Shown one piece after another: positions 3,320 through 41,226 of a stretch of DNA of 64,000 nucleotides. The translations under genes were made by a program, and so were the position numbers. Within the stretch, counting starts at the first letter, position 1. Each line of letters begins with the position of its first letter. This DNA comes from a phage. The notes below the pieces were generated by a model. It worked only from the letters and a program-made list of their open reading frames with translations, did not search any database and was not told the origin of the DNA. The stretch lies in the NCBI GenBank assembly GCA_018865545.1, contig GCA_018865545.1_3633.1; one strand, given 5' to 3'.

Positions 3320-4174
3320 ATGGCAAAGATACCTGACGAAAACATTTCTTCTTATTTTGATGACTACCTGCATCACACAAAATCTATGAAAATAAATTTT
3401 AATGTATTCCGTGAAGCCATTATAAGGGAAGTTGAAAGTCGCCACCATGAACCAAACCCTTTAATAGAACTCATAAAACATGCTGTGCTTATGTGTTTTG
3501 ATACTCTGGATAGGAAATGTTACTGGAAATATTATGTTGAAGCTGACGAGCGTGCTTACATGGCAAGCGTAAACTTAACGCATGAGTTTTCAAGCTATGA
3601 TATTACTTGTGGGCAAATAACAATTTCTTTCCAAGGCTTTAATTATGGAATGTGTTTAGCAGGATCGTTGTCTGCACGAACACAAAAATTCCTGTCTGTT
3701 TTGTCCCAATTGGGGCATTGGGATGGTAATATGTTTTCCATAAAGGCTTCCTATGTCAGAACAAACCCAGATATTCTCCACATCAGGGAGATTAACTCCA
3801 GTTTTGGATCCTTTTCTCTGGCGGGTTGTTATGGAATGTTTTACCAAACAAAGATGTATGATTATGCAGGTCATGCTGCAATTAAGATAGCCAACACGCC
3901 AAACGTAGAGAATAAGAAATCGCACTACTACTTGGTGTGTAATACCCAAGAAGTAATGTACCATCGTGTTGTAGAAAAGGAGCTAAAAGAGCTTATCTTG
4001 GGGGAGATCCCTACCCAAGAGGAACGCTCAATGATAGAAATGGCTGGGTACAAAGGAGAATTTTTTCTTGATTCTCTTGTAGATTTTGATAATATTGGTA
4101 TAAAACCCTTTAACATGCAAGAGGCATATGAATGGCACAATCGAAGTCTGTCCCCAGTAACATGCAAGATTTAA
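3320..4174 (+). CDS. hypothetical protein
   Basis: ORF from ATG 3320 (track start 3314 is TTG); no motif recognised. Confidence 0.45.
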   Translation: MAKIPDENISSYFDDYLHHTKSMKINFNVFREAIIREVESRHHEPNPLIELIKHAVLMCFDTLDRKCYWKYYVEADERAYMASVNLTHEFSSYDITCGQITISFQGFNYGMCLAGSLSARTQKFLSVLSQLGHWDGNMFSIKASYVRTNPDILHIREINSSFGSFSLAGCYGMFYQTKMYDYAGHAAIKIANTPNVENKKSHYYLVCNTQEVMYHRVVEKELKELILGEIPTQEERSMIEMAGYKGEFFLDSLVDFDNIGIKPFNMQEAYEWHNRSLSPVTCKI

Positions 4175-9725: not shown

Positions 9726-9910
9726 TGGCTTTAATTGTTTCTACGACACACACAACTGTAGAACGTGGTATGTTAAAGGCAAAGTGTGACACAATTATTT
9801 TTGAAGATGAAGAACAGGGCAGAAAGTTTATTGAAGACAATAAAACATTTGTATACTCTGTTCAGAAAGCACCTATTGTTAAAGAGAAACAAAACAATGA
9901 TTACGATTAA
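9722..9910 (+). CDS. hypothetical protein
   Basis: 62-aa ORF. Confidence 0.35.
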   Translation: MMALIVSTTHTTVERGMLKAKCDTIIFEDEEQGRKFIEDNKTFVYSVQKAPIVKEKQNNDYD

Positions 9911-10241
9911 TGGTAATACAATTTCTGGAAACTATACCAATGGTAGTATCTCTATCACCACTAAGGGTGATAATGTCTATATCAATGGTGATTTAGTTCA
10001 TACCACAAACGATAAAAACATCACAGTTATTATCAAAGGTGATGCTAAAGAGGTACGTACAACATCAGGTGGTATCAATGTCTATGGAAATGTCTCTAAT
10101 GGTGTGATCTCAACATCTGGGGATATTAATGTTGAGAAAGATATCTTAGGCAATGTATCTTCGGTGTCTGGTGATGTTTGCGCAAATACAATCCATGGAA
10201 GTGTAAACACAGTGTCTGGAGATATTCGTTTCCATCGCTAA
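9897..10241 (+). CDS. small beta-solenoid-like repeat protein
   Basis: 115 aa from ATG 9897; periodic G-x-(I/V)-x-V / SGD(I/V) repeats. Confidence 0.4.
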   Translation: MITINGNTISGNYTNGSISITTKGDNVYINGDLVHTTNDKNITVIIKGDAKEVRTTSGGINVYGNVSNGVISTSGDINVEKDILGNVSSVSGDVCANTIHGSVNTVSGDIRFHR

Positions 10242-10282: not shown

Positions 10283-10801
10283 TTGAAAATAAGATCTTTA
10301 TTATTTGCAGTTTGCTGTGCACTTTCTCTGTCTATTACCCCTGTTCTAGCCAAAGAAAGTGCAAAGAAGCCCCAAGTTCTTCACATTTGCAAGAAGAATG
10401 ATACAGAGCTTAATATTCTTGCCTGTAACTTGTATAAAGAGGGAAGAGGAGAAGGTGATTATGGAATGATGGGTGTCGCTTTTGTCACATTGAATAGAAA
10501 AGATGACAAGAATTTCCCGCATACTATCAAGAAAGTAGTTTACCAGCCGGGGCAATTCTCTTGGACATTCGGTGGGCAATCCTTTAAAGTCTATGAAAAG
10601 GATAGGTGGTTAAGAGCTAAATTTTATGCTAAAATCTTGATGAGATTGCATAAAGACCACAAAAGTTTATACAAGGCTCTTGACTACACAAAATCAGCAA
10701 CGTACTATCATGCAACTACTGTTAGGCCATCTTGGGCAAAAGTCATGGTGAAAACAGTGAAGGTTGGGAATCATATTTTTTACAAGCATCCTGACGCATA
10801 A
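10283..10801 (+). CDS. secreted SleB-like cell wall hydrolase (candidate endolysin)
   Basis: signal-peptide-like N-terminus (KIRSLLFAVCCALSLSITPVLA); KEGRGEGDYGMMGVAFVTLNR and QPGQFSW match the SleB/Hydrolase_2 signature; start placed at TTG 10283 after GGAG. Confidence 0.6.
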   Translation: MKIRSLLFAVCCALSLSITPVLAKESAKKPQVLHICKKNDTELNILACNLYKEGRGEGDYGMMGVAFVTLNRKDDKNFPHTIKKVVYQPGQFSWTFGGQSFKVYEKDRWLRAKFYAKILMRLHKDHKSLYKALDYTKSATYYHATTVRPSWAKVMVKTVKVGNHIFYKHPDA

Positions 10802-10821: not shown

Positions 10822-12822
10822 ATGATTATTCAAAGATCTGACAACAAAGTTCAGGTAACTGGGAACGTAGAAAGATACCAAGCATCAATTGCAATGAATC
10901 CTGAGACTTTCAGTATTCTTATCGATGGAATTTATAAAGATAAACCTTTGGCAGCAGTACGAGAGCCTCTCTTCAACGCTGTAGATGCTCATACAGAGGC
11001 AGGGTGTTCTGATAAACCCATCATCATCCACTCACCAACAGACTTGGAACCTTGGTATTCTGTTAAGGATACAGGGTTAGGTATGGATCATGAGATGGTA
11101 ACACGTACATTCATGATGATTGGTGAGTCCACAAAAAGAAACAGTAATGATCTGATTGGCGCGAAAGGTATTGGGTCAAAAGCGCCTCTTGCAGTAACAG
11201 ATATGTTCACAGTTGTTTCTGTTAAAGATGGAGTGAAAACAACATACTCTGTTCACAAAAACAGCGGAATACCAGAGGTTGTACCTTTATTCTGTTGTGA
11301 AACAACAGAGGAGAATGGTGTAGAGGTTAAATTTAACGTAAACACTTGGGAAACAGGAGCTTATCGACAGGCTATTGTAAAATGCCTTCGTTATGCCAAA
11401 TTCCCATATATTATTAACGATCCTTTTGTTAAAACTCAGATTGAAGATCGCACTTATCCTGTTCAGTATCGGTATGAGGATGAGGAGACTGGCTGGGTTC
11501 TTGAGATGTATAGTAGCATTTCAAGAAACGCTGATAGTGTTGTCATCATGGGGCAACAACCATATCTCTCTGATTATCTCTCTACTCGCAAAGAACTGCC
11601 TATGATGACGGTATCTATCCCTATTGGGGATTGTAATGTAGATCCTGGCAGGGAGTGGACAGTAGAAGGAAAGAATGACGGGGGATTTCGTGATAAACTT
11701 GAAAGTTTTGTGACGAAAGCTATCCGACTTCGCGGAGAAGAAATCACAAAAGAATTAAGCGATCTGCCAACTTTAAAGGCAGTTCTTGATCATATGAAGT
11801 TTATTGGCGGTTACTTCGCTACAAAGTACGGTGCTGCTTTTATTGCAAATAAGTTCAAGAATTATACTGATGGTTCTTACATAGATTACTGTGAAACATA
11901 TGGTGGCGAAGGCTCACGCCGTGGTAAGGATGAGCGTTATTCATACGCAGAGTTGATGAATGGTCATCCACTGGTTTACAATGATGATCACAAGTATGTG
12001 CGCTCTAAATGTAATTGGCTTGCAGAGAAGTTCGGTAAGAGATCGTTTATAACCGATGCTGATTACGCTCTGTCCTTATACAGTGATAAATTCTTTGAGG
12101 GGATGATTTTCAAGTTATCTGAACTTGAAAAACGACCAGTGCAAAAAGCAGATAAAAAGTATGGTGGCTATGGTTATTACGAACCGGGTCATAAAGTTTG
12201 GATAATCAACCAAGATGGCTCCGTAGATGTAACCCGCATTTCCCGTGCTCAGTTTGAAGATATTGAGGCGGCTATGGTCTACTGGGGTGGGCAGGTGAAA
12301 GGATTATGCCCGTTAGGATACGTTTCCAATCTTAGAACAACTTGGAGAAAGCAACCGCCAACATTTCTTAAGAATCTTGGTGTAGCTGGTAAGTTATATA
12401 TTGTGCCTTTAAACAGATCAAGTTGGCTGCCAGATGAGGCACGGGTTATAACTGAGGAGGATATTCATGCTCTTGCAAAAACTAACCTTCTTGAATATCA
12501 TTTATATCAAGAAGTGGGGAAAGATCATGAGTATCATAACATTGTTAAAGAGCTTAGCTATTTTGGTGTGATGGTAGCTAGTTTCCCAAAATGGGAGATG
12601 AAGGTAAACATACCCAGTTATTGTTCAGTTCCTGGCTACGAAGATAGTCGTGAGAAAGCATTAGGGATGATAGAGGCCAAGAAGAGAATTGGGAAAAAGC
12701 TACTACAGATTAAGAAAGATCGTTACCCATTGTTAAAATACATTAATATTAGGCATTTCAATACTCCAGAGATGCTAGAGTATCGTAAATTTATTGACAG
12801 CAAAGGAGAAAAAGGTGAGTAA
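10822..12822 (+). CDS. GHKL (Bergerat-fold) ATPase-like protein
   Basis: N-box EPLFNAVDA, G1 box DTGLGM, G2-like GAKGIGSKA; 666 aa, rest unassigned. Confidence 0.5.
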   Translation: MIIQRSDNKVQVTGNVERYQASIAMNPETFSILIDGIYKDKPLAAVREPLFNAVDAHTEAGCSDKPIIIHSPTDLEPWYSVKDTGLGMDHEMVTRTFMMIGESTKRNSNDLIGAKGIGSKAPLAVTDMFTVVSVKDGVKTTYSVHKNSGIPEVVPLFCCETTEENGVEVKFNVNTWETGAYRQAIVKCLRYAKFPYIINDPFVKTQIEDRTYPVQYRYEDEETGWVLEMYSSISRNADSVVIMGQQPYLSDYLSTRKELPMMTVSIPIGDCNVDPGREWTVEGKNDGGFRDKLESFVTKAIRLRGEEITKELSDLPTLKAVLDHMKFIGGYFATKYGAAFIANKFKNYTDGSYIDYCETYGGEGSRRGKDERYSYAELMNGHPLVYNDDHKYVRSKCNWLAEKFGKRSFITDADYALSLYSDKFFEGMIFKLSELEKRPVQKADKKYGGYGYYEPGHKVWIINQDGSVDVTRISRAQFEDIEAAMVYWGGQVKGLCPLGYVSNLRTTWRKQPPTFLKNLGVAGKLYIVPLNRSSWLPDEARVITEEDIHALAKTNLLEYHLYQEVGKDHEYHNIVKELSYFGVMVASFPKWEMKVNIPSYCSVPGYEDSREKALGMIEAKKRIGKKLLQIKKDRYPLLKYINIRHFNTPEMLEYRKFIDSKGEKGE

Positions 12823-13807
12823 TCCTTTATTCATGTCACGTCGTGAAGCTCGTGAATACGCTAAGAAAAATAATATGGTGGTTGTTGATCGTGGTCTAAA
12901 TGTTCTTAAACGCTGGACAGTTGCACCCAAGAAAGGAATGCCGACAACCAAAAAGGCTAAGGAAGATCCTGTAGGTATTATGAAGCCAGTGCATACTCTT
13001 GCACAACCAATTGTCCTTGTTACCCAAGACAATATCCATATCACTTTGTTAAATGGTGAACAATATACTCTAAATAGTAGCAGCCCCATCTTCAAAGAAG
13101 TTGGTGTTATCCTTTGGACAGGAGGAATAGATGCTGCTGTACAACGTATTTTGGAAGAGAAAGAAGCAGAAAAGAAAAAGACCATTGATTTTGGTGATAA
13201 TTTAGTATTGATAGATAGTGCTTTATATTGGCACGGTCAAAAACAGGAAAGCAGTATTGCTAAACGAATCATTAAAGATATTGAGAATGATTGCTTTGAC
13301 GAACGATATGTCAAATTCATGCAGAAGTTGCTACACAACCCGTCGTATGCTTCTGTTAAAATGCTTTATGATTTTGTAAAACATAATGATCTTGAGATCC
13401 TTGAAAACGGAAATATTAAGGCATACAAGAAAATTAAGATAACTGTAGATGGCCCACGAGATTGTCATACAGGTAAAGTTCCTAATTATAAAGGGCAAGT
13501 GATTTCCATGCCACGTAATATGGTTGAGGATAATCCCAATAGAACATGTAGCCAAGGTTTGCATGTTGCATCTATTGACTATGCCGCTACCTTTGAGAAG
13601 ACTTCAAGGGCACTTGTAGAAGTATCTGTGGATCCGGCAGATATTGTCAGTGTCCCTTATGACTATAACCAGAAAAAATGCCGTTGCTGTCGTTATGAAG
13701 TTCTGACAGGAACACCAAAACCAGCAGGTGCACCAGATATTATTGTCATTGGTGTACAGGGTAAAATTCTTGAAGAGATTTATCTACAAGAATCTAAGGA
13801 GGACTGA
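12815..13807 (+). CDS. hypothetical protein
   Basis: start at GTG 12815 after AAAGGAG (ATG 12833 is an alternative). Confidence 0.45.
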   Translation: MSNPLFMSRREAREYAKKNNMVVVDRGLNVLKRWTVAPKKGMPTTKKAKEDPVGIMKPVHTLAQPIVLVTQDNIHITLLNGEQYTLNSSSPIFKEVGVILWTGGIDAAVQRILEEKEAEKKKTIDFGDNLVLIDSALYWHGQKQESSIAKRIIKDIENDCFDERYVKFMQKLLHNPSYASVKMLYDFVKHNDLEILENGNIKAYKKIKITVDGPRDCHTGKVPNYKGQVISMPRNMVEDNPNRTCSQGLHVASIDYAATFEKTSRALVEVSVDPADIVSVPYDYNQKKCRCCRYEVLTGTPKPAGAPDIIVIGVQGKILEEIYLQESKED

Positions 13808-29107: not shown

Positions 29108-29289
29108 TGCGTGTGGCATGTATCGGCCTGTTACCGTATCCGATTCGATTTTGGGCATCTGCGCCAATTGCAAATCCGAATATCCTGATGGCTGACAACA
29201 TCATCTCGGCACAGAAGCGCCATACCGGTATTGCAGCGGCACGACGAGCAGCCAAGAAACGCAGAAAGTCAAAACATAAGAGGAAATAA
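29107..29289 (+). CDS. hypothetical protein with basic C-terminus
   Basis: C-terminal KKRRKSKHKRK. Confidence 0.35.
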   Translation: MRVACIGLLPYPIRFWASAPIANPNILMADNIISAQKRHTGIAAARRAAKKRRKSKHKRK

Positions 29290-29453
29290 TGAAAGAAATA
29301 TTATTTGCATTCATATTTGCACTTGTAAGTGTTCCTGTGGCGATGGTTATGGCTGGTTTACCAGTTCATAAAGGGCTGCTTTTTGCGGGGCATATAGGAG
29401 CTTTTGTCATAGGTTTGCTCACTTGTCTACAGGTGGTTGCTAAAGATGTGTAA
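29289..29453 (+). CDS. small hydrophobic (membrane) protein
   Basis: 54-aa ORF absent from the track; two hydrophobic stretches. Confidence 0.3.
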   Translation: MKEILFAFIFALVSVPVAMVMAGLPVHKGLLFAGHIGAFVIGLLTCLQVVAKDV

Positions 29454-33774: not shown

Positions 33775-33787
33775 ATACCTCATAAAA

Positions 33788-33815
33788 ATGGAGGGGAGAT
33801 CCCCTCCATTTTTTG
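33788..33815. terminator. bidirectional rho-independent terminator between early (+) and late (-) blocks
   Basis: 9-bp stem ATGGAGGGG/CCCCTCCAT with AGAT loop, A-run before and T-run after. Confidence 0.6.
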
Positions 33816-33959
33816 ATTAAAGTCTAGGTGTTTATTAGGGATTTATACAACAGTGGCGATCTTATGATAATTACATACTCCTATAAAGTGTGGATTATTT
33901 GTAATAAATATTTACTTGTAAAAATAAGTGATGTCCTACAAAATTATAAAAGAGCTTTA

Positions 33960-34592
33960 TTAAACCACCGTTACTGTTTCTTTGTGGGTGGCAGAAACAT
34001 CTTTGTATGTACCTTTTAATCCACATTGTGCCTCACCAGAGGATATGCATGTAAATATCCCGCTAGGAGCCATGCTTATGATGTTAGGTGTTTCTGCAAA
34101 CCCATAGACAGAGAAGTCATCTTCTTCCATGATCTCTGGCGGGAATACATCAAAACCAACCATATTAGGGGATGGGTTGCCAGGATCAAAAGAAGGATCG
34201 CCTCTATAGACAAACCAGAACCTGTCCCCGATTGATCTATTTCCTATAGGGTCAACGTCCAATCTCAACTCTTCTACATTTCCAGTTATAACATCGGATA
34301 AAGTTATATCTCCAACTGTCTTTGCTGTCATCAATATACTGAAGTAACCTTCTGAAATAAAGGATATTTCCCCATCTTTATTAACAGAGACCGAATCCGG
34401 CGTATTAGCTTCAAAAGTTATATCATATATATCAGCCCCTTCGGGGGAAACCGCATACGCCAGCTTTTTAGAACTACCTTTTAATGCAATACCTATAGGT
34501 TGTAAAGTTATGGATTGTGCCGCTATCTTGTTAATAATTGTATTATAGAAACAAGGAATTGGATACATTAAACCTCCTAAAACAAAGGCCAC
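33960..34592 (-). CDS. hypothetical tail-associated protein
   Basis: 210-aa ORF just downstream of a tail-fibre gene. Confidence 0.35.
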   Translation of the reverse strand: MAFVLGGLMYPIPCFYNTIINKIAAQSITLQPIGIALKGSSKKLAYAVSPEGADIYDITFEANTPDSVSVNKDGEISFISEGYFSILMTAKTVGDITLSDVITGNVEELRLDVDPIGNRSIGDRFWFVYRGDPSFDPGNPSPNMVGFDVFPPEIMEEDDFSVYGFAETPNIISMAPSGIFTCISSGEAQCGLKGTYKDVSATHKETVTVV

Positions 34593-34609
34593 TGCTGTGG
34601 CCTTTTACA

Positions 34610-36364
34610 TTATGGTTGTGGTCTACGGACAATAACAGTGTCGATAACCCCACCTTCAACACCATTAAAGGTTAATTGAAGGATGGTGACTGAATTTGCT
34701 GTTGTATTAACAGTTTCACTGTTAAGGACAACATAATTAGGATCCAGAGTCACACTGTGCCCACCTGTGGCATCCTGCGTCAGATAAATCATAGCGGAGA
34801 AAGGTTGCTGTGGATCAGGCCATGCTCCGATTGTCAGATTTTTATTTACTGTGACATTATAAATGTTGGATGTGCCGCTTGGTGTCCATGTTGCTGTCGG
34901 ATCGTCAACTTCTTCCGATTGTAAAGTTAGGAAACTTACATTGGTGGAAGAAAGTTGTGTCTGGCCGTTAACAAATAACTGATTTGTCGTTACACTGCTT
35001 TGAGCAGAAAGAGATGCTACGTTTACGTTTTGTCCTGTCAAATCAAACGTAATACCAGATACAGTCCCCTTAACAATCAGGTTGTTTACTGTTGTTGTGC
35101 CAGAAGATCTATTTAAAGTCACATCGCCATCAGATATTATCTTACCAAGGGTTGAAGTTCCGTTGACAGTTAGATCACCACCTACAGACCCGTCACCAGT
35201 CGCAGTGAATCCCTCCCCTAAAGTTAATAGCCCTGTGACATTACCAGTTGTAGAGGAGAAATCTTTGAGACTGGCTTGTCCATTAACAACAAGGTTGTTA
35301 GTAACTTCTAAGCTCTCACATGTTGTACTGTTGAGATTGGTGTTACCATTGACTTGTAAATCACCACCTACAGTAATCCCTTGTGCCGTTGTTACAGAAT
35401 TAGGCGAGATATCTTCCCCATTGACAGAAAAAGAAAGTCCTGTTACAGTACCTGTAATCTTTAAGTTTTCAAGTTCTGTTATCCCAGAAACTTTAAGACG
35501 AGCTTCAGAAGGGTCTTTTTTAGAGTTACCTGTAATGTAAACATAGTCGAAGGTATTATTACCAAGACCTGTGAAAGACATTGTTGTATTGTCTGCTACT
35601 GGCACACCGTTTATGATGATGTCTGTATGTAACTGATGTGTCTGCGCTGAGTATGCTTCAAGCCTTGTTTTTATAAACGTCGGGTTAGAATCATCACTGT
35701 AGGCAAAAGATAGACTTGAATTATCTTTTGTTAAGATAAGATTCTGGAATTTTCCTGTTTGATTTTCAGCATTAACAGGCCCATTAAATGTTGACACACC
35801 GCCAACAGAAAGCGTATTAAGACTCGCTAAACCTGTTACAGTAAGATCCGCGAATGTACCGTTGCCACCCGCAATTCCAGCCAAAGCAGTAGCAATAGCT
35901 CTAGTAACGAATTGTGTTGTTGCCAGAGTTGTACTGTTACTATCCGCTGATGGTGTTGGTGCTTGAGGGTTCCCTGTAAAAATAGGGCTGTCAATAGGCG
36001 CAAATAGCTGAGACATAGATTCTGAATCGTTGTATAATCTCCAGTTAACATTATTGACTGGATTAGGAGGTAGTGTTACAGGCGAACTCTCTGTCGCACC
36101 GGGTGCATACCACCATTGGACACCTCTTTCCCCTGTATAGGCATACAACTGATTAAATACCGTCGTCTGTTGTCCAGCAACCCACGGCAGTGGAGGTGTT
36201 TTAAAGAATAAATTGTCAAGAAATGCTTTTCTGACTGTAGGTATCAGACTGCCATCCTCTGTAACTACAGTTTCAGTAGCTGCCCCATTGACAACTTTAT
36301 GAAGGCGTTCAGAATCTTCTACAACCTGATCTACCGCCTGTTCAAATTTAGTCATGTCCGCCAC
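34610..36364 (-). CDS. tail fibre protein
   Basis: PIFTGNPQAPTP...TTQFV collar motif shared with 56066..57676 and 58239..59489; long Gly/Thr/Asn-rich repeat region. Confidence 0.55.
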   Translation of the reverse strand: MADMTKFEQAVDQVVEDSERLHKVVNGAATETVVTEDGSLIPTVRKAFLDNLFFKTPPLPWVAGQQTTVFNQLYAYTGERGVQWWYAPGATESSPVTLPPNPVNNVNWRLYNDSESMSQLFAPIDSPIFTGNPQAPTPSADSNSTTLATTQFVTRAIATALAGIAGGNGTFADLTVTGLASLNTLSVGGVSTFNGPVNAENQTGKFQNLILTKDNSSLSFAYSDDSNPTFIKTRLEAYSAQTHQLHTDIIINGVPVADNTTMSFTGLGNNTFDYVYITGNSKKDPSEARLKVSGITELENLKITGTVTGLSFSVNGEDISPNSVTTAQGITVGGDLQVNGNTNLNSTTCESLEVTNNLVVNGQASLKDFSSTTGNVTGLLTLGEGFTATGDGSVGGDLTVNGTSTLGKIISDGDVTLNRSSGTTTVNNLIVKGTVSGITFDLTGQNVNVASLSAQSSVTTNQLFVNGQTQLSSTNVSFLTLQSEEVDDPTATWTPSGTSNIYNVTVNKNLTIGAWPDPQQPFSAMIYLTQDATGGHSVTLDPNYVVLNSETVNTTANSVTILQLTFNGVEGGVIDTVIVRRPQP

Positions 36365-36374
36365 AAGAATCTCC

Positions 36375-36638
36375 TTATTGGTCTGACTCTTCCCTACGTT
36401 GTGCTTCTACACCCCAGCGTAGAGATATTAACTTACTTATTAACTGCGGGGCAGCTACTGTGGGGGCATACACCCACATATACCACTCCGTTAATGTGCC
36501 TTTGAAACCCCAATCCAAAAAAACTGCTGTCATTGCAGCTAATCCGATATTGCTCCAAAATTTTGTGTGGGAGGCTTTCTCTGGATTTACTGGGGATCTG
36601 ACAAGATCTTTTAAAAATTTCAATATTGATTTTATCAT
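36375..36638 (-). CDS. small membrane protein
   Basis: 87 aa with a central hydrophobic segment. Confidence 0.35.
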   Translation of the reverse strand: MIKSILKFLKDLVRSPVNPEKASHTKFWSNIGLAAMTAVFLDWGFKGTLTEWYMWVYAPTVAAPQLISKLISLRWGVEAQRREESDQ

Positions 36639-36653
36639 AATACATTAGAATCC

Positions 36654-37127
36654 TCAATAATTTACTCCAGGAACAATTCTGGCTATAATTATGAAACCAA
36701 CAACAACAGAAGTTTTAAACAATTCTTTTATTGTACCTGTTTTGTATGCAGCGCATAATAAAAGAACTTCCATAAATGTTGGATATGATGAATTTATCGT
36801 GAAGCCTAATGCGTTCGGTAAAATAAATGGGAACTGCATAATTAAAATTTGGCAAAACAAAACAGGTAGAGATAGTGCAAGCATTAGCTTTTTTCTCCAT
36901 CCTGTCAAAACACATGCAGTAAAGAAAATCAGAGATATATCCAAAAACCAACAAAAAGTTAGGTAGAGTGATAAATCAAATGCGTAGATATGGGAACTGA
37001 ACCACCAGTACAATATATTCTCTATCAGGATATGAACCATGCCAAGTACTGACATGGTTCGGATACCTTTATCATTATCAAGAAGTAGCACTGCAAAGCA
37101 TATAAAGTACAGTGCAGAACTTATCAT
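36654..37127 (-). CDS. multi-pass membrane protein
   Basis: 157 aa with several hydrophobic helices. Confidence 0.4.
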   Translation of the reverse strand: MISSALYFICFAVLLLDNDKGIRTMSVLGMVHILIENILYWWFSSHIYAFDLSLYLTFCWFLDISLIFFTACVLTGWRKKLMLALSLPVLFCQILIMQFPFILPNALGFTINSSYPTFMEVLLLCAAYKTGTIKELFKTSVVVGFIIIARIVPGVNY

Positions 37128-37438
37128 TTCATTTGGCTCTCTATAAGAATTTTAAGCTGGTCTATAAGATCAACTCTCAAACTGCTTACATCCTCTTTTA
37201 AGTCTTTTCTAAAATCTGAAACATCATCGCGGACAGCTTTCAGTTTTTTATCAAGAATCTCATCAAGTTTTTCTTTAGTGACCATTTCTGCCTTAATTCT
37301 TATGATGTCCCTATCAAGTTCATCAAGACGTTGTTGTGTCTTTTTATAGTCTGAGTATGTTAACTTCAGAACACCAACTAAGAAAAACGTCAATACGCCC
37401 CATACGGCTTTTAAGATAGCAAATAGGTCAATAGACAT
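37124..37438 (-). CDS. membrane-anchored coiled-coil protein
   Basis: N-terminal hydrophobic helix then charged coiled-coil (QQRLDELDRDIIRIKAEM). Confidence 0.4.
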   Translation of the reverse strand: MSIDLFAILKAVWGVLTFFLVGVLKLTYSDYKKTQQRLDELDRDIIRIKAEMVTKEKLDEILDKKLKAVRDDVSDFRKDLKEDVSSLRVDLIDQLKILIESQMK

Positions 37439-37450
37439 TCCTTAGCTCCT

Positions 37451-38035
37451 TTACTCAACTGACGGTCTTATAGCCCATGTTATGTTAGGAGCATCCTCAG
37501 TTTTAATGCTTAATACCTCACAACGATAAATCTTTAATTTCTTAAGAATATCTGCCATGTGCTCTGGTAGTTTTTTACCTGTTACCTGCTCATAGTCTTC
37601 ATATGTCTGAATATATTGACTTGCCCATGCAATTTCCTTATCCTTGTGAAGTTTTGCCTCTTGTATAGATCGGAAATAGGTATAAACAAATTTGCCATCT
37701 TTTAATGCCACGTCACCGAGGTCATACTCAATGCCTTTAGGCAAATTTTCTACCGGAACAACCGCTATTTTCCAGCCGCTGAAAGGAGTGCACCCATCAA
37801 AACCTTCATAGCAAACGCAGCAAACCCTATCGTCGAGATCCAGCGAAAGAAAAGCATATTTCCCCGGCTCTGTTTGGGATTTCAATTCTTCGGCTATTTC
37901 ATAATAGTCTTTCCCCGTAGATTCTTCATAGAAAAAAGGGGCGAAAGGGTTAGCTTCCAACAATCTTTTCGTAGCTCCTGTTGCATTATCAGGAAGTGGA
38001 GAATAAGGGAAAAATGGTCCAAATATTTTGTTCAT
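37451..38035 (-). CDS. hypothetical protein
   Basis: 194-aa ORF. Confidence 0.4.
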   Translation of the reverse strand: MNKIFGPFFPYSPLPDNATGATKRLLEANPFAPFFYEESTGKDYYEIAEELKSQTEPGKYAFLSLDLDDRVCCVCYEGFDGCTPFSGWKIAVVPVENLPKGIEYDLGDVALKDGKFVYTYFRSIQEAKLHKDKEIAWASQYIQTYEDYEQVTGKKLPEHMADILKKLKIYRCEVLSIKTEDAPNITWAIRPSVE

Positions 38036-38052: not shown

Positions 38053-39147
38053 TTAAACTCTACTTACGTTGTGCCAGACACCATTTACTTGTTTCTGGAT
38101 ATACGCATAGTAAACCCCACCAATGTTGTCTGCTGAGTTTTTACCAACATCTTGAGGATAGATACCTGTCATAACTGCACCCGCTGGCGCTTGCCAGTTC
38201 CAAGATACTAGGTTACTACCAGGCCAGTACCATGTGTTACCTGTTAATCTAACATCTTGAACACCGCCAGTTTGGATATTAACATTGCCGTTACCATCCG
38301 CACCTACACCATTAACAGATCTTACGATATTTCTCCCAGCAACCGTAGCAGAGTTATTATTTACAATTAACGCATTTACGTTTGCTGTTCCATTAACTCT
38401 TGCAGATGGTGTTGTTAATGAGCTTGTTGCTACAACAGTCTGACCTTGAATTTGCCCTGTAGCCGTCAAAGAGGATGTTCTTGTTGTGGTGAATGTTGCA
38501 TTTGTGCCATTAACATTTGTTCCTTGTACAGTTCCTGTGGCAACAACATTTCCTGTTACTTTACACAAAGCCGCTGAGGAGCTAATAGCATTAAGCTCCA
38601 TCATAGTGAACATCCCAGAGTTACCTGAAGGAGAGAATCGGAAACGTATAGAATCTACACCGTTTGTCCCTGCTGTTCCCGGATTATCTCCAAGAACAAA
38701 ATCCCAGTACGTCCAGTCAGAAGCCGGATTTGTAGTTGTAATATACGCAGTATCTGTTTCAGAAGGTTGAAAATTCAATCTCGGCAATGACAAAGCTCCT
38801 GTCATTGTATCTCCCGTTACATTCACGTAACGGTTGTCGGCCTCTGATCTGCTCCACACATCAAGGTTGACTCTGGATGTTTCCTTGTCAGCTAAATCAG
38901 ACAGATTTTCACTTCTTCTTAAAAATCTTGTATCTAATTCAGGAATTTGATCCCCTGTAACATATTTTATCCAACTTGTCATCATATGAAGAACATAGTT
39001 AAATTCTTCACAAGCTGGTTTTTCTCCCATATCCCAACCTTTTAACCAAAGGTCGTCAATAGGTCTTATTTTATTCTCCCCGTGAGTATTAGGGAGAATT
39101 ACATCCCCCGCTGCCCAAATCTCGATTGGTATACTTGGTGTAGCCAT
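38053..39147 (-). CDS. tail fibre protein
   Basis: GDTMTGALSL fibre motif; Gly/Thr/Asn-rich repeats. Confidence 0.55.
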   Translation of the reverse strand: MATPSIPIEIWAAGDVILPNTHGENKIRPIDDLWLKGWDMGEKPACEEFNYVLHMMTSWIKYVTGDQIPELDTRFLRRSENLSDLADKETSRVNLDVWSRSEADNRYVNVTGDTMTGALSLPRLNFQPSETDTAYITTTNPASDWTYWDFVLGDNPGTAGTNGVDSIRFRFSPSGNSGMFTMMELNAISSSAALCKVTGNVVATGTVQGTNVNGTNATFTTTRTSSLTATGQIQGQTVVATSSLTTPSARVNGTANVNALIVNNNSATVAGRNIVRSVNGVGADGNGNVNIQTGGVQDVRLTGNTWYWPGSNLVSWNWQAPAGAVMTGIYPQDVGKNSADNIGGVYYAYIQKQVNGVWHNVSRV

Positions 39148-39162
39148 AAAAGTATCTCCTTC

Positions 39163-41226
39163 TTAAACTTCTGGTGGGGTATCTTTTAAATACCCTTTCA
39201 ATGCTGTATGCCCCATATGAAAGACTGCGGATTGAGAGTTGTGCACTGTTATAGAATCATGCATTACTTGTGGATACGCCCATATGTATTGATAAATACC
39301 TGGAAACTTAAACTCATTAAGAACGATGTTCCCTATAATCATTTTCCAAAGATATTCTCTATAATTAGAATTAGGGTCAAATCCGTATAATGGTGCTAGC
39401 CCTTCGTCTGGAACAAATCCTGCCAGATAATGTATCTTATCTTCTTTAAATTTTAAGACATCTCGCGGAATGGTGATGGCCTGGAATGATTTTTCCATTT
39501 TTCCTTGAAGTAACCAGTCATAGCACTCGGAGCAATAAAAATCAAAATTCTCAGGTGTATAACTACCACTAGGGAAATTTATCTTTTCCATAATACCATT
39601 ACCAATAATGGATGGTAAAAACGGTAAAAGTGTTATTTTTGCATTAGGATAAGATTTTTTAAGATCAGCACCGAATTTTACCACTCGCTCCCCTAAGCAC
39701 TGTCTTAGAAAATCTACATACTCATCATAGGGTGTTCCGGTCTTAAAGTCATAAATTGTTCCCATGTCTTGAGCATACAATCCAGTCTCTTCATTAAAAC
39801 GAACTTTTGTAGTATAATCATAGACACAAGGTAAGTTAGTAGCTGTATTATACCACCACCAAGGTTCTCCTATCTGAATGATAACAACTTGGTTAACTTG
39901 TTCGCACGTAGCTGCTATTTTATTTATCACACTTTGGATATATTGCATACCCTCATTAATATTAGGTGATAATACCCAACTAGGAGGTGTATAGCCTGTT
40001 TCAGCCAATGCATCATTCCAATCATGCTGCACCCATTCTGCCGGACATACAGTGCTCATCAACTCAAAACTAATAGAATTGATAACCTTATAACCATTTG
40101 CTCGTGTCAGTGCGAAATAGTTATTCATCCATTGTAGGGTTGCATTATTGACAGGGACATCTTTGTTCAGTTTCCATGCGGAGCTTTCCCAAGAGAACTC
40201 GTAATAATGCGACATACCATTATAGTGGTTTATCATATCCCTGTACCCAAGTTTCAAGCAGTTGTCCACCACTCGTTCAGGTGTCAGGTTATACATGTCA
40301 TCATAGGATGTACACATACGCACATCATGTGCAGGAATTGTCAAATTATTAACTCTCATCATTGTATAGCCTGTATCAGGCTCTTTAAGAGTTATTTTCA
40401 ACATAAGGTTCTGATTTTCTTTAGGGACAACATCTTCTCCTTCTGCATACTTCTCAGATATCATAGAAAAGAAAAACTGATCCACTTGAGAGGTATCCAC
40501 TGGCACGTTCACATCAGGGCCAGATTTTAAATTTGAAAAATCAAGTTTGATTGTGGCTCTTTTATAATCCTCGCTGATATTTTCAGCATAAGCGTACAGA
40601 GGGATATAATGGGTCGCCCCATCTAAAAGTTTAAGGGTTAATGTCGGGGTCAATTTCTCATTATTGAAATCAGGCATTCCGTCGCCCAACTCTATATCGA
40701 ACCACAGTTTAGCGTTTCGAAGATCTGCGTGATCTTGAAAAGAGATCCCTTTATGATCATACTTATCTTTTGTGCTCCAAATAACCCCTGCTAAACCGCT
40801 TACAGTTCTATTAGTCATATAAGCTGTAAGTATATTACCATTAGATATTATAGAGCAACTTTCTGTGGGTTGAGAATCAATTGTCCAATATTTAGGTAGA
40901 AACATTTTCTCTTCTTTTGTTCCCCACCCCAACTCAGACATATCCTCCTTGGTGCTAATAACACATCTGGAAGCCAGCCTGTCTAGCCTTGCACCAAAAG
41001 ACGGATTACTCATTTTTAAGGTAAATTCTCTTGGTAATGAGTTTTTAGGATGTTGTTTTATCTCCACAGGTATCTGTACAGACTTTTCCCCTTTAGGAAT
41101 TGTTGCCGTACCTACTTTGGGTGTATAATCTCTTCCAGCAATAGCTGTGTTTGATATTGTTTCATAGTCAAAGCTGACAGCTACAGAGTCATCTTCTCTT
41201 CTGGCTGTGAAAATAGCCTCTGCCAT
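39163..41226 (-). CDS. tail spike/fibre protein with N-terminal Calx-beta-like domain and large globular C-terminal domain
   Basis: VSFDYETISNTAIAGRDYTPKVGTATIPKGEKSVQIPV resembles a Calx-beta repeat; Trp/Tyr-rich C-terminal domain (IGEPWWWYN). Confidence 0.45.
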   Translation of the reverse strand: MAEAIFTARREDDSVAVSFDYETISNTAIAGRDYTPKVGTATIPKGEKSVQIPVEIKQHPKNSLPREFTLKMSNPSFGARLDRLASRCVISTKEDMSELGWGTKEEKMFLPKYWTIDSQPTESCSIISNGNILTAYMTNRTVSGLAGVIWSTKDKYDHKGISFQDHADLRNAKLWFDIELGDGMPDFNNEKLTPTLTLKLLDGATHYIPLYAYAENISEDYKRATIKLDFSNLKSGPDVNVPVDTSQVDQFFFSMISEKYAEGEDVVPKENQNLMLKITLKEPDTGYTMMRVNNLTIPAHDVRMCTSYDDMYNLTPERVVDNCLKLGYRDMINHYNGMSHYYEFSWESSAWKLNKDVPVNNATLQWMNNYFALTRANGYKVINSISFELMSTVCPAEWVQHDWNDALAETGYTPPSWVLSPNINEGMQYIQSVINKIAATCEQVNQVVIIQIGEPWWWYNTATNLPCVYDYTTKVRFNEETGLYAQDMGTIYDFKTGTPYDEYVDFLRQCLGERVVKFGADLKKSYPNAKITLLPFLPSIIGNGIMEKINFPSGSYTPENFDFYCSECYDWLLQGKMEKSFQAITIPRDVLKFKEDKIHYLAGFVPDEGLAPLYGFDPNSNYREYLWKMIIGNIVLNEFKFPGIYQYIWAYPQVMHDSITVHNSQSAVFHMGHTALKGYLKDTPPEV

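Follow-up and report, generated by a model that had tools for sequence, protein, structure and literature searches.

A three-gene membrane-protein cluster in the tail-fibre operon of an rV5-like phage and its candidate holin

Introduction

In bacteriophage T4 the holin gene t lies immediately after the tail-fibre genes 37 and 38, far from the endolysin gene e and from the spanin genes. Class II holins and pinholins, such as S21 68, are small proteins with two transmembrane domains (TMDs) and an N-in/C-in topology. Here we analyse a 64,000-nucleotide stretch of phage DNA (contig GCA_018865545.1_3633.1 of GenBank assembly GCA_018865545.1; the whole stretch is called the window below) in which three consecutive genes, here named A, B and C, stand between tail-fibre genes. 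Based on sequence comparison, we propose that C, whose family goes by the name of holin in no library, is most likely a lysis protein of the holin type, because distant relatives of C follow endolysin genes and several of these are in turn followed by spanin-like open reading frames (ORFs). That the three genes together form a lysis-control module within the late tail-fibre operon is a broader proposal, to which we give about an even chance.

By sequence the window is an rV5-like virulent myophage, Avunavirus-like within the Vequintavirinae, because its region 34000-39500 matches Escherichia phages 18-1-2, TH18 and Av-05 with 94.6-96.6% nucleotide identity, Av-05 being classified in Avunavirus, Vequintavirinae. 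The lysis genes of rV5-like phages are known to be scattered, and the rV5 paper draws the same parallel to the placement of T4 t. Holin proposals for the subfamily differ (rV5 gp129, CB7_82) and none is established; a CRISPRi-ART study of the rV5-like phage EdH4 targeted only capsid and rII genes and gives no essentiality data for the trio. An Rz/Rz1 spanin pair is reported to be conserved in CB7, rV5 and PVP-SE1. A further described system is the releasin gp25 of phage Mu, a protein of 99 amino acids (aa) in an N-out/C-in orientation, with four periplasmic residues, a basic pair at the junction and a 73-aa cytoplasmic domain; genes of its family, DUF2730, belong to transposable phages and lie no more than five genes downstream of the endolysin gene (PMC9239132).

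Results

Relatives of C in lysis cassettes

When a profile of C was searched against 1.8 billion representative proteins, 94 clusters matched at a whole-library E <= 1e-3. We examined 13 contexts of C-like genes outside the large myophages (11 distant members looked up and three cultured phages). In 8 of the 13 the C-like gene directly follows an endolysin gene, usually overlapping it, and these endolysins are of five enzyme types (Table 1). The endolysins of the C-like cassettes have no signal sequence or TMD and therefore need a holin; the cassettes of locus L045 and of the Pseudomonas Mu-like phage Bise contain no holin-like gene other than the C-like one. Spanin-like ORFs follow in several cassettes: L045 and L047 carry downstream a TMD-plus-helical ORF that overlaps a lipobox ORF, and in Bise the C-like gene is followed by an i-spanin gene with an embedded proline-rich lipoprotein.

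The homology between these cassette proteins and C of the window is solid at the level of sequence comparison. P0163, the C-like protein of the L037 cassette, retrieves Vequintavirinae C proteins in a plain tblastn search (1e-14), 39-42% of residues being identical across the whole length, and its matches include phage TH18, which is 94.6% identical in nucleotide sequence to the window over the region searched. The first-pass annotation of this DNA had suggested a holin-like lysis cassette at a distance from the SleB-like hydrolase gene; the cassette contexts bear this out for C only, a lysis role for A and B being conjectural.

Two arrangements among the C relatives are recorded here in their own right. 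Five of the C-like cassettes encode, ahead of the endolysin, a small protein that begins with a coiled coil and ends in one TMD (positions in Table 1), which is the architecture of XhlA; weak Pfam XhlA matches were obtained for FV3 gp31 (E 0.015) and for the protein in the gp25 position of L043 (E 0.08). In the T4-like Stenotrophomonas phage Mendera (L075 2863-3246) and Acidovorax phage ACP17 (L076 2893-3330), the C-like domain lies behind an extra N-terminal TMD, and the gene, which neighbours the DNA polymerase gene, sits by itself on the opposite strand; in Mendera a terminator of its own is annotated.

Architecture and sequence family of C

The AlphaFold2 (AF2) model of C (pLDDT 88) consists of an amphipathic helix at residues 2-13 and a helical hairpin formed by residues 24-46 and 51-86. 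Two motifs hardly vary across the family: SHTKFWSN precedes helix 1, and SKLISLRWG closes helix 2. Aromatic residues are found at both ends of the helices, and the protein finishes in a charged tail that varies between members. Counted together, lysine and arginine average 4 residues for the N side, 0.5 for the loop and 2.9 past helix 2 across the family, a pattern that, read from sequence, fits an N-in/C-in topology. Small size, a helical hairpin, basic N- and C-flanks, a near-uncharged loop and a variable charged tail are all holin-like features. The hydropathy of C is weak, with a maximum KD19 of 1.16 that falls under the usual TMD thresholds, and published TMD predictions for its relatives vary from none (rV5 gp29) to one (PVP-SE1 gp41). 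Where C had earlier been described as a single-pass membrane protein, then, it is a weakly hydrophobic protein modelled as a hairpin, whereas the description of A and B as membrane proteins holds on hydropathy, A having one strong N-terminal TMD and B several.

All 64 aligned members of the C family match phrog_1322. A second family, DUF2644 (PF10841), to which no function is assigned and of which the literature searched yielded no mention, is matched weakly by 8 of the 64, all distant members (best E 3e-4); precomputed DUF2644 matches exist for P0028, P0160, P0163 and P0190, while C of the window and 21 close relatives reach no threshold. A related-locus search with a narrow C alignment retrieved Vequintavirinae only. 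Foldseek comparison of the C model with the PDB gave no functional lead. A likeness of C to the T7 holin gp17.5 was rejected by hhalign (6.5%), and no relation was found to P2 Y (hhalign 0.1%) or to Mu gp24.

Both A and C evolve more slowly than the flanking fibres. C is the best conserved gene of its neighbourhood, with 84, 61 and 48% identity to its counterparts in PVP-SE1, phiTE and FV3, respectively; over the same three phages the two fibres score 61, 25 and 45% and 66, 28 and 44%, and the tail-fibre assembly protein (TAP) 34, 21 and 26%.

The trio within the tail-fibre operon

The window carries plus-strand genes from about 3 to 34 kb and minus-strand genes elsewhere. The three ORFs together fill 36375-37438 exactly, on the late strand and between fibre genes, just as the first-pass annotation had placed them. 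The TAP gene and the 364-aa fibre gene lie upstream, and the 584-aa fibre gene lies downstream, beyond which comes a tail protein with an Ig domain. A is preceded by a ribosome-binding site (RBS), AAGGAG, 7 nucleotides (nt) ahead of its ATG, the stop codon of A and the start codon of B overlap as ATGA, and the remaining gaps measure 15 nt from B to C and 10 nt from C to the 584-aa fibre gene. A scan for consensus promoters and terminators around the trio found no internal signal above background. This packing is operon-like on sequence grounds, with C translationally coupled within the tail-fibre operon.

The three are genuine conserved genes rather than chance ORFs, because each protein matches a PHROG over its whole length (A phrog_5345, E 8.7e-46; B phrog_7451, E 1.6e-72; C phrog_1322, E 1.5e-30) and each has homologues by tblastn among phage records (222 for A, 107 for B and 375 for C). 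Scans of the three proteins against Pfam, NCBIfam and PADLOC gave no meaningful match, the Pfam set scanned excluding PF26221; in PADLOC, A drew only chance-level coiled-coil matches (E 0.008-0.02), and B and C none.

Table 1. Positions and supporting evidence for the genes discussed, in the window and in the cassettes of C-like genes
Feature	Position	Strand	Evidence or remarks
Gene A	37124-37438	-	104 aa; ORF with RBS, hydropathy, phrog_5345, family alignment
Gene B	36654-37127	-	157 aa; multi-pass; AF2, phrog_7451
Gene C	36375-36638	-	87 aa; AF2, phrog_1322, profile search
Tail-fibre assembly protein, Caudo_TAP	37451-38035	-	PF02413, phrog_136
364-aa tail fibre	38053-39147	-	upstream of the Caudo_TAP gene
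584-aa tail fibre	34610-36364	-	phrog_4549, E 2e-223; starts 10 nt past the C stop
SleB-like hydrolase, putative partner of C	10283-10801	+	Hydrolase_2, E 6e-21; phrog_938 endolysin
rIIA/rIIB	10822-13807
114-aa protein of GN/GD-V/I repeats	9897-10241	+	directly upstream of the SleB-like gene
54-aa very hydrophobic ORF	29289-29453	+	early/middle strand
687-aa protein	39163-41226	-	baseplate module
Distal Ig-domain tail protein	33960-34592		210 aa
Coiled-coil/TMD protein before endolysin, L036	79-378		C-like gene after Amidase_3 endolysin
Coiled-coil/TMD protein before endolysin, L037	319-669		C-like gene (P0163) after Peptidase_M15_4 endolysin
Coiled-coil/TMD protein before endolysin, L039	63-278		C-like gene after Peptidase_M15_4 endolysin
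Coiled-coil/TMD protein before endolysin, L041	4098-4490		C-like gene after Peptidase_M15_3 endolysin
Coiled-coil/TMD protein before endolysin, L047	3416-3796		C-like gene after GH108 + PG_binding_3 endolysin
Cassette L043			C-like gene after VanY / Peptidase_M15_4 endolysin
Cassette L045			C-like gene after GH108 + PG_binding_3 endolysin
Cassette of Pseudomonas Mu-like phage Bise			C-like gene after Peptidase_M15_4 endolysin

Synteny, virion composition and alternative roles

The gene order TAP-A-B-C-fibre is kept in Av-05, PVP-SE1 (gp44-40), phiTE (237-241) and CB7 (32-36), and A directly follows the Caudo_TAP gene in every lineage examined. Aeromonas phage phiA009 has an A homologue (E 1e-10, Z = 1e6), a multi-pass ORF and a C homologue side by side; the multi-pass ORF, about 150 aa long and unannotated, lies at the B position between genes 0081 and 0080 (L011 ~3460-3920), and the B profile misses it. 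In Phapecoctavirus and in Pseudomonas phage PsgM04F, C stands between a tail protein gene and a baseplate wedge gene with overlapping stop and start codons, and in both of these a protein built like A comes after the TAP gene, some 3.5 kb further downstream. The post-TAP protein of the Stephanstirmvirinae is a borderline relative of A (E 0.015 at Z = 1e6; hhalign 36.6% vs 1.4% for a decoy).

It is conceivable that the trio are instead membrane-associated assembly factors for the tail fibres or baseplate, or minor virion proteins, with A tethering a chaperone/fibre complex at the inner membrane and C acting together with the coupled baseplate and fibre genes. The position of A directly after the Caudo_TAP gene in Vequintavirinae and Plateaulakevirus, the shared architecture of the Stephanstirmvirinae post-TAP protein, the codon-overlapping place of C between tail and baseplate wedge genes, the strong conservation of C within its neighbourhood and the label 'structural protein' on some GenBank records of C homologues would all agree with such a role. 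We nevertheless regard it as unlikely. The labels come without traceable evidence, and the relatives of C in small Mu-like and other phages adjoin endolysin and spanin genes, not fibre genes. Virion mass spectrometry (MS) of CB7 picked up both flanking fibres, CB7_31 and CB7_36, and none of CB7_32-35, rV5 gp29 and gp31 carry no MS flag, and the phiTE baseplate is built from nine proteins, none of them like the trio, genes 238-240 receiving no mention in the phiTE cryo-EM paper. The first-pass annotation had set its own proposals against the detection of these proteins as virion structural components, and CB7_33-35 and rV5 gp29 and gp31 were not so detected. On the available evidence the trio proteins are not virion parts; this evidence consists of negatives only, and small membrane proteins are easily missed.

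A second alternative, raised by the same annotation, is that the trio serves superinfection exclusion or immunity, blocking DNA entry or adsorption of later phages as do T4 Imm and Sp, T5 Llp and Cor. Small membrane proteins beside receptor-binding genes occupy a common place for morons, the PHROGs category of phrog_1322 is 'moron, auxiliary metabolic gene and host takeover', and in Menderavirus and Busanvirus the C-like domain forms a stand-alone membrane-protein gene by the DNA polymerase gene, roughly as T4 imm lies beside its DNA polymerase gene. Yet neither PADLOC nor, among the matches listed, Pfam gave a match to exclusion families, and the three belong to the core gene set of several virus subfamilies that infect many host genera. 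Their conservation exceeds that of the receptor-binding fibres, which argues against receptor-specific masking, and their translation is coupled within a late structural operon in which no promoter specific to them rises above background. Exclusion would also leave the lysis-cassette contexts of the C relatives unexplained, and we consider it quite improbable.

Genes A and B

A begins with MSID, followed by a TMD at about residues 5-25, a conserved YSDYKK and a highly charged helical domain of about 75 aa. In this domain 49% of residues are charged and 59% of the a/d residues are hydrophobic in the best heptad register, so that the sequence is compatible with a coiled coil. The N-flank MSID has a net charge of -1 and no lysine or arginine, while the flank past the TMD holds four such residues, including the conserved KK. 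Because an acidic N-flank thus faces a basic post-TMD flank, the positive-inside rule predicts an N-out/C-in topology with the C-terminal domain in the cytoplasm. Matches of the jackhmmer A profile to coiled-coil tail fibres were discarded as profile drift.

The first-pass annotation had called the cluster spanin-like, but the idea of A as the i-spanin partner in a spanin pair, to which its N-terminal TMD, long charged helical domain and size near the small end of Rz-like proteins might point, is already contradicted and highly improbable: the charge bias would put the helical domain in the cytoplasm, inverted with respect to a spanin, no lipoprotein (o-spanin) ORF is embedded in, overlaps or adjoins A, whose strand is full of stops in its other frames and whose next gene is the six-helix B, an Rz/Rz1 pair is annotated beside the terminase gene in Av-05 and kept in CB7, rV5 and PVP-SE1, and hhalign of A against six i-spanins gave at most 1.4%.

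By analogy with Mu gp25, A may act like a releasin or an antiholin-type tether. In Bise and L043, a gp25-position protein with the architecture of A shares a cassette with a C-like gene. A scan with PF10805 recovered Mu gp25 (2.5e-13) and gave no match for A of the window at E <= 0.1, nor for the A-type proteins of FV3, phiTE and ukendt or the gp25-position protein of L043.

The AF2 model of B has six helices (pLDDT 80.7, pTM 0.73) with conserved polar residues inside them (E36, N37, D51, D63, Q93, Q98 and E120). Because these intramembrane acidic and polar residues are conserved, the sequence suggests a specific membrane function. Foldseek found no fold match for the B model in the PDB (best E 1.6) and, in BFVD, only unnamed phage proteins of about 150 aa (E 0.02-0.3). 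All of 28 B homologues, including one that is 92% identical, carry a precomputed match to PF26221, Phage_phiTE_239, which is the name of a family and not of a function. In rV5 and FV3 a 347-aa fibre takes the place of B, giving the order TAP, A, fibre, C, fibre; because a fibre gene replaces it in rV5, this comparison of gene orders shows B to be dispensable for whatever A and C do. A relationship between B and P2 LysA was tried and rejected by hhalign.

Other putative lysis genes and further features of the window

The SleB-like hydrolase gene immediately precedes rIIA/rIIB; 26 kb and a change of strand separate it from the trio. As listed, its ORF starts at 10178 and crosses AAAGCCCC-TTTA-TGGGGCTT, a hairpin resembling a terminator, situated after the upstream gene. 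Because of this hairpin the long version is unlikely, and the true start is likely the TTG at 10283, judging from the sequence. The N-terminus that results, MKIRSLLFAVCCALSLSITPVLA/KES, is probably an export signal or a segment resembling a signal-anchor-release (SAR) sequence.

Other observations concern the neighbourhood of this gene and the holin question. The 114-aa repeat protein encoded directly upstream of the SleB-like gene has a beta-helix or bactofilin-like look and no Pfam match at E <= 0.01. The 54-aa ORF has two apparent TMDs, a maximum KD19 of 2.65 and no PHROG match; it could be mistaken for a holin candidate, or compete as one.

Beyond the lysis genes, the 687-aa protein of the baseplate module combines NCTSP_N and a TIM barrel (E 6e-76) with a Calx-beta domain. 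These are the domains of the N4-type 'non-contractile tail sheath', here found in a contractile-tailed phage, and MS supports the rV5 homologue of the 687-aa protein, gp34, as a structural protein. The distal Ig-domain tail protein is far shorter than in Av-05 (647 aa) and PVP-SE1 (604 aa); within 33775-34600, nucleotide identity to relatives begins only at about 34534, and at the meeting point of the two strands the gene seems to have been cut short or exchanged for another. At its right end the window passes directly from tail fibres into capsid genes at about 60 kb, unlike the Av-05 record NC_025830.1. That record is some 13-25 kb shorter than related genomes and may be rearranged or incompletely assembled.

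Discussion

We propose a mechanism in which C would be made late, along with the fibres, and would enter the inner membrane in the form of a two-helix hairpin with N-in/C-in topology, accumulating there. At a critical level C would permeabilise or depolarise the membrane, by holin or pinholin action, and so activate or release the exported SleB-like hydrolase together with any soluble lysin. The Rz/Rz1 spanins encoded beside the terminase gene would then break the outer membrane. A, as a membrane-tethered cytoplasmic helical protein, and B, as a multi-pass protein, could tune the timing of these events as antiholin-like or releasin-like accessories.

Several points weigh against this proposal. 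The modelled helices of C have so little hydrophobicity that even their insertion into a membrane is uncertain, and neither C nor its relatives (64 members) match any Pfam, NCBIfam or PHROG family named holin. Among the 13 contexts from outside the large myophages, five show no endolysin gene: P0169 has a homing endonuclease gene ahead of it and a TMD-plus-helical ORF behind it, the neighbours of P0190 and P0212 are uncharacterised, and Mendera and ACP17 complete the five. L047 carries a separate three-TMD protein ahead of its endolysin, and by analogy with the position of P2 lysA the C-like protein there could be an antiholin or another regulator. In the large myophages C always lies within the baseplate/fibre module, in the Stephanstirmvirinae about 3.5 kb from the A-like gene, and this placement equally fits an assembly role. 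The trio is no obligate unit either, B being swapped for a fibre gene in rV5 and FV3. As for A, sequence comparison does not connect it with DUF2730: hhalign gave 7% against Mu gp25 and 9% against the Bise-type gp25-position proteins, in neither case better than reversed decoys (12% for the Bise type).

A more ambitious version of the lysis proposal, possible but in our judgement doubtful, is that C founds a widespread and unrecognised holin family (phrog_1322, DUF2644-related) that serves endolysins of at least five types and was moved into the baseplate/fibre operon of large myophages (Vequintavirinae, Stephanstirmvirinae, Plateaulakevirus), where C together with the A tether and B would make up a three-part lysis clock coupled to fibre production. 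What is new here is the candidate holin family and a candidate T4-like scattered layout of lysis genes.

The question matters because phages like rV5, PVP-SE1 and phi92/phAPEC8 are widely used in biocontrol and therapy cocktails, and their holin has never been identified. A named candidate family makes the holin question testable by simple induction and knock-down. If our proposal is true, it would correct 'membrane protein' and 'moron' annotations in hundreds of genomes and flag a recurrent cassette of endolysin, C-like and spanin genes in many uncultured phages. It would also mean that engineering of the fibre locus, as in host-range swaps, may replace genes for lysis timing.

Among known systems, the layout can be compared with that of T4. 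In both phages a late membrane-protein gene with a role in lysis, putative in the case of C, sits just downstream of fibre and fibre-chaperone genes, the lysis genes are scattered, and rIIA/rIIB are present. The proteins themselves have no sequence relation: T4 T is a 218-aa protein with one TMD and a large periplasmic domain, whereas C is an 87-aa protein modelled as a two-helix hairpin with no periplasmic domain. In its predicted form C resembles the class II holins and pinholins: it is small, has two putative TMDs in an N-in/C-in arrangement, whose helices are weakly hydrophobic and contain many small residues, ends in a charged tail and co-occurs with an exported endolysin. It differs from them in having no Pfam or NCBIfam holin match and no dual-start motif, and C-like genes come after the endolysin gene, not before it.

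The accessory genes have their own counterparts. A resembles Mu gp25 in size (104 vs 99 aa), in having about four residues ahead of an N-terminal TMD and, by prediction, in its N-out/C-in topology, its 73-78-aa helical cytoplasmic domain and the basic pair near the junction; both Mu and the phage of the window have an exported endolysin. A has no match to the gp25 family, and it departs from the DUF2730 pattern: 26 kb separate it from the SleB-like gene, and the phage that carries it is a virulent, non-transposable myophage. P2 LysA, a 141-aa multi-pass protein that is encoded between the endolysin gene K and the spanin genes lysB/lysC and affects lysis timing, is similar to B in size and multi-pass nature, with an hhalign probability of 0.6%; C is unrelated to it, and it is the C-like genes that correspond to LysA in position, within lysis cassettes.

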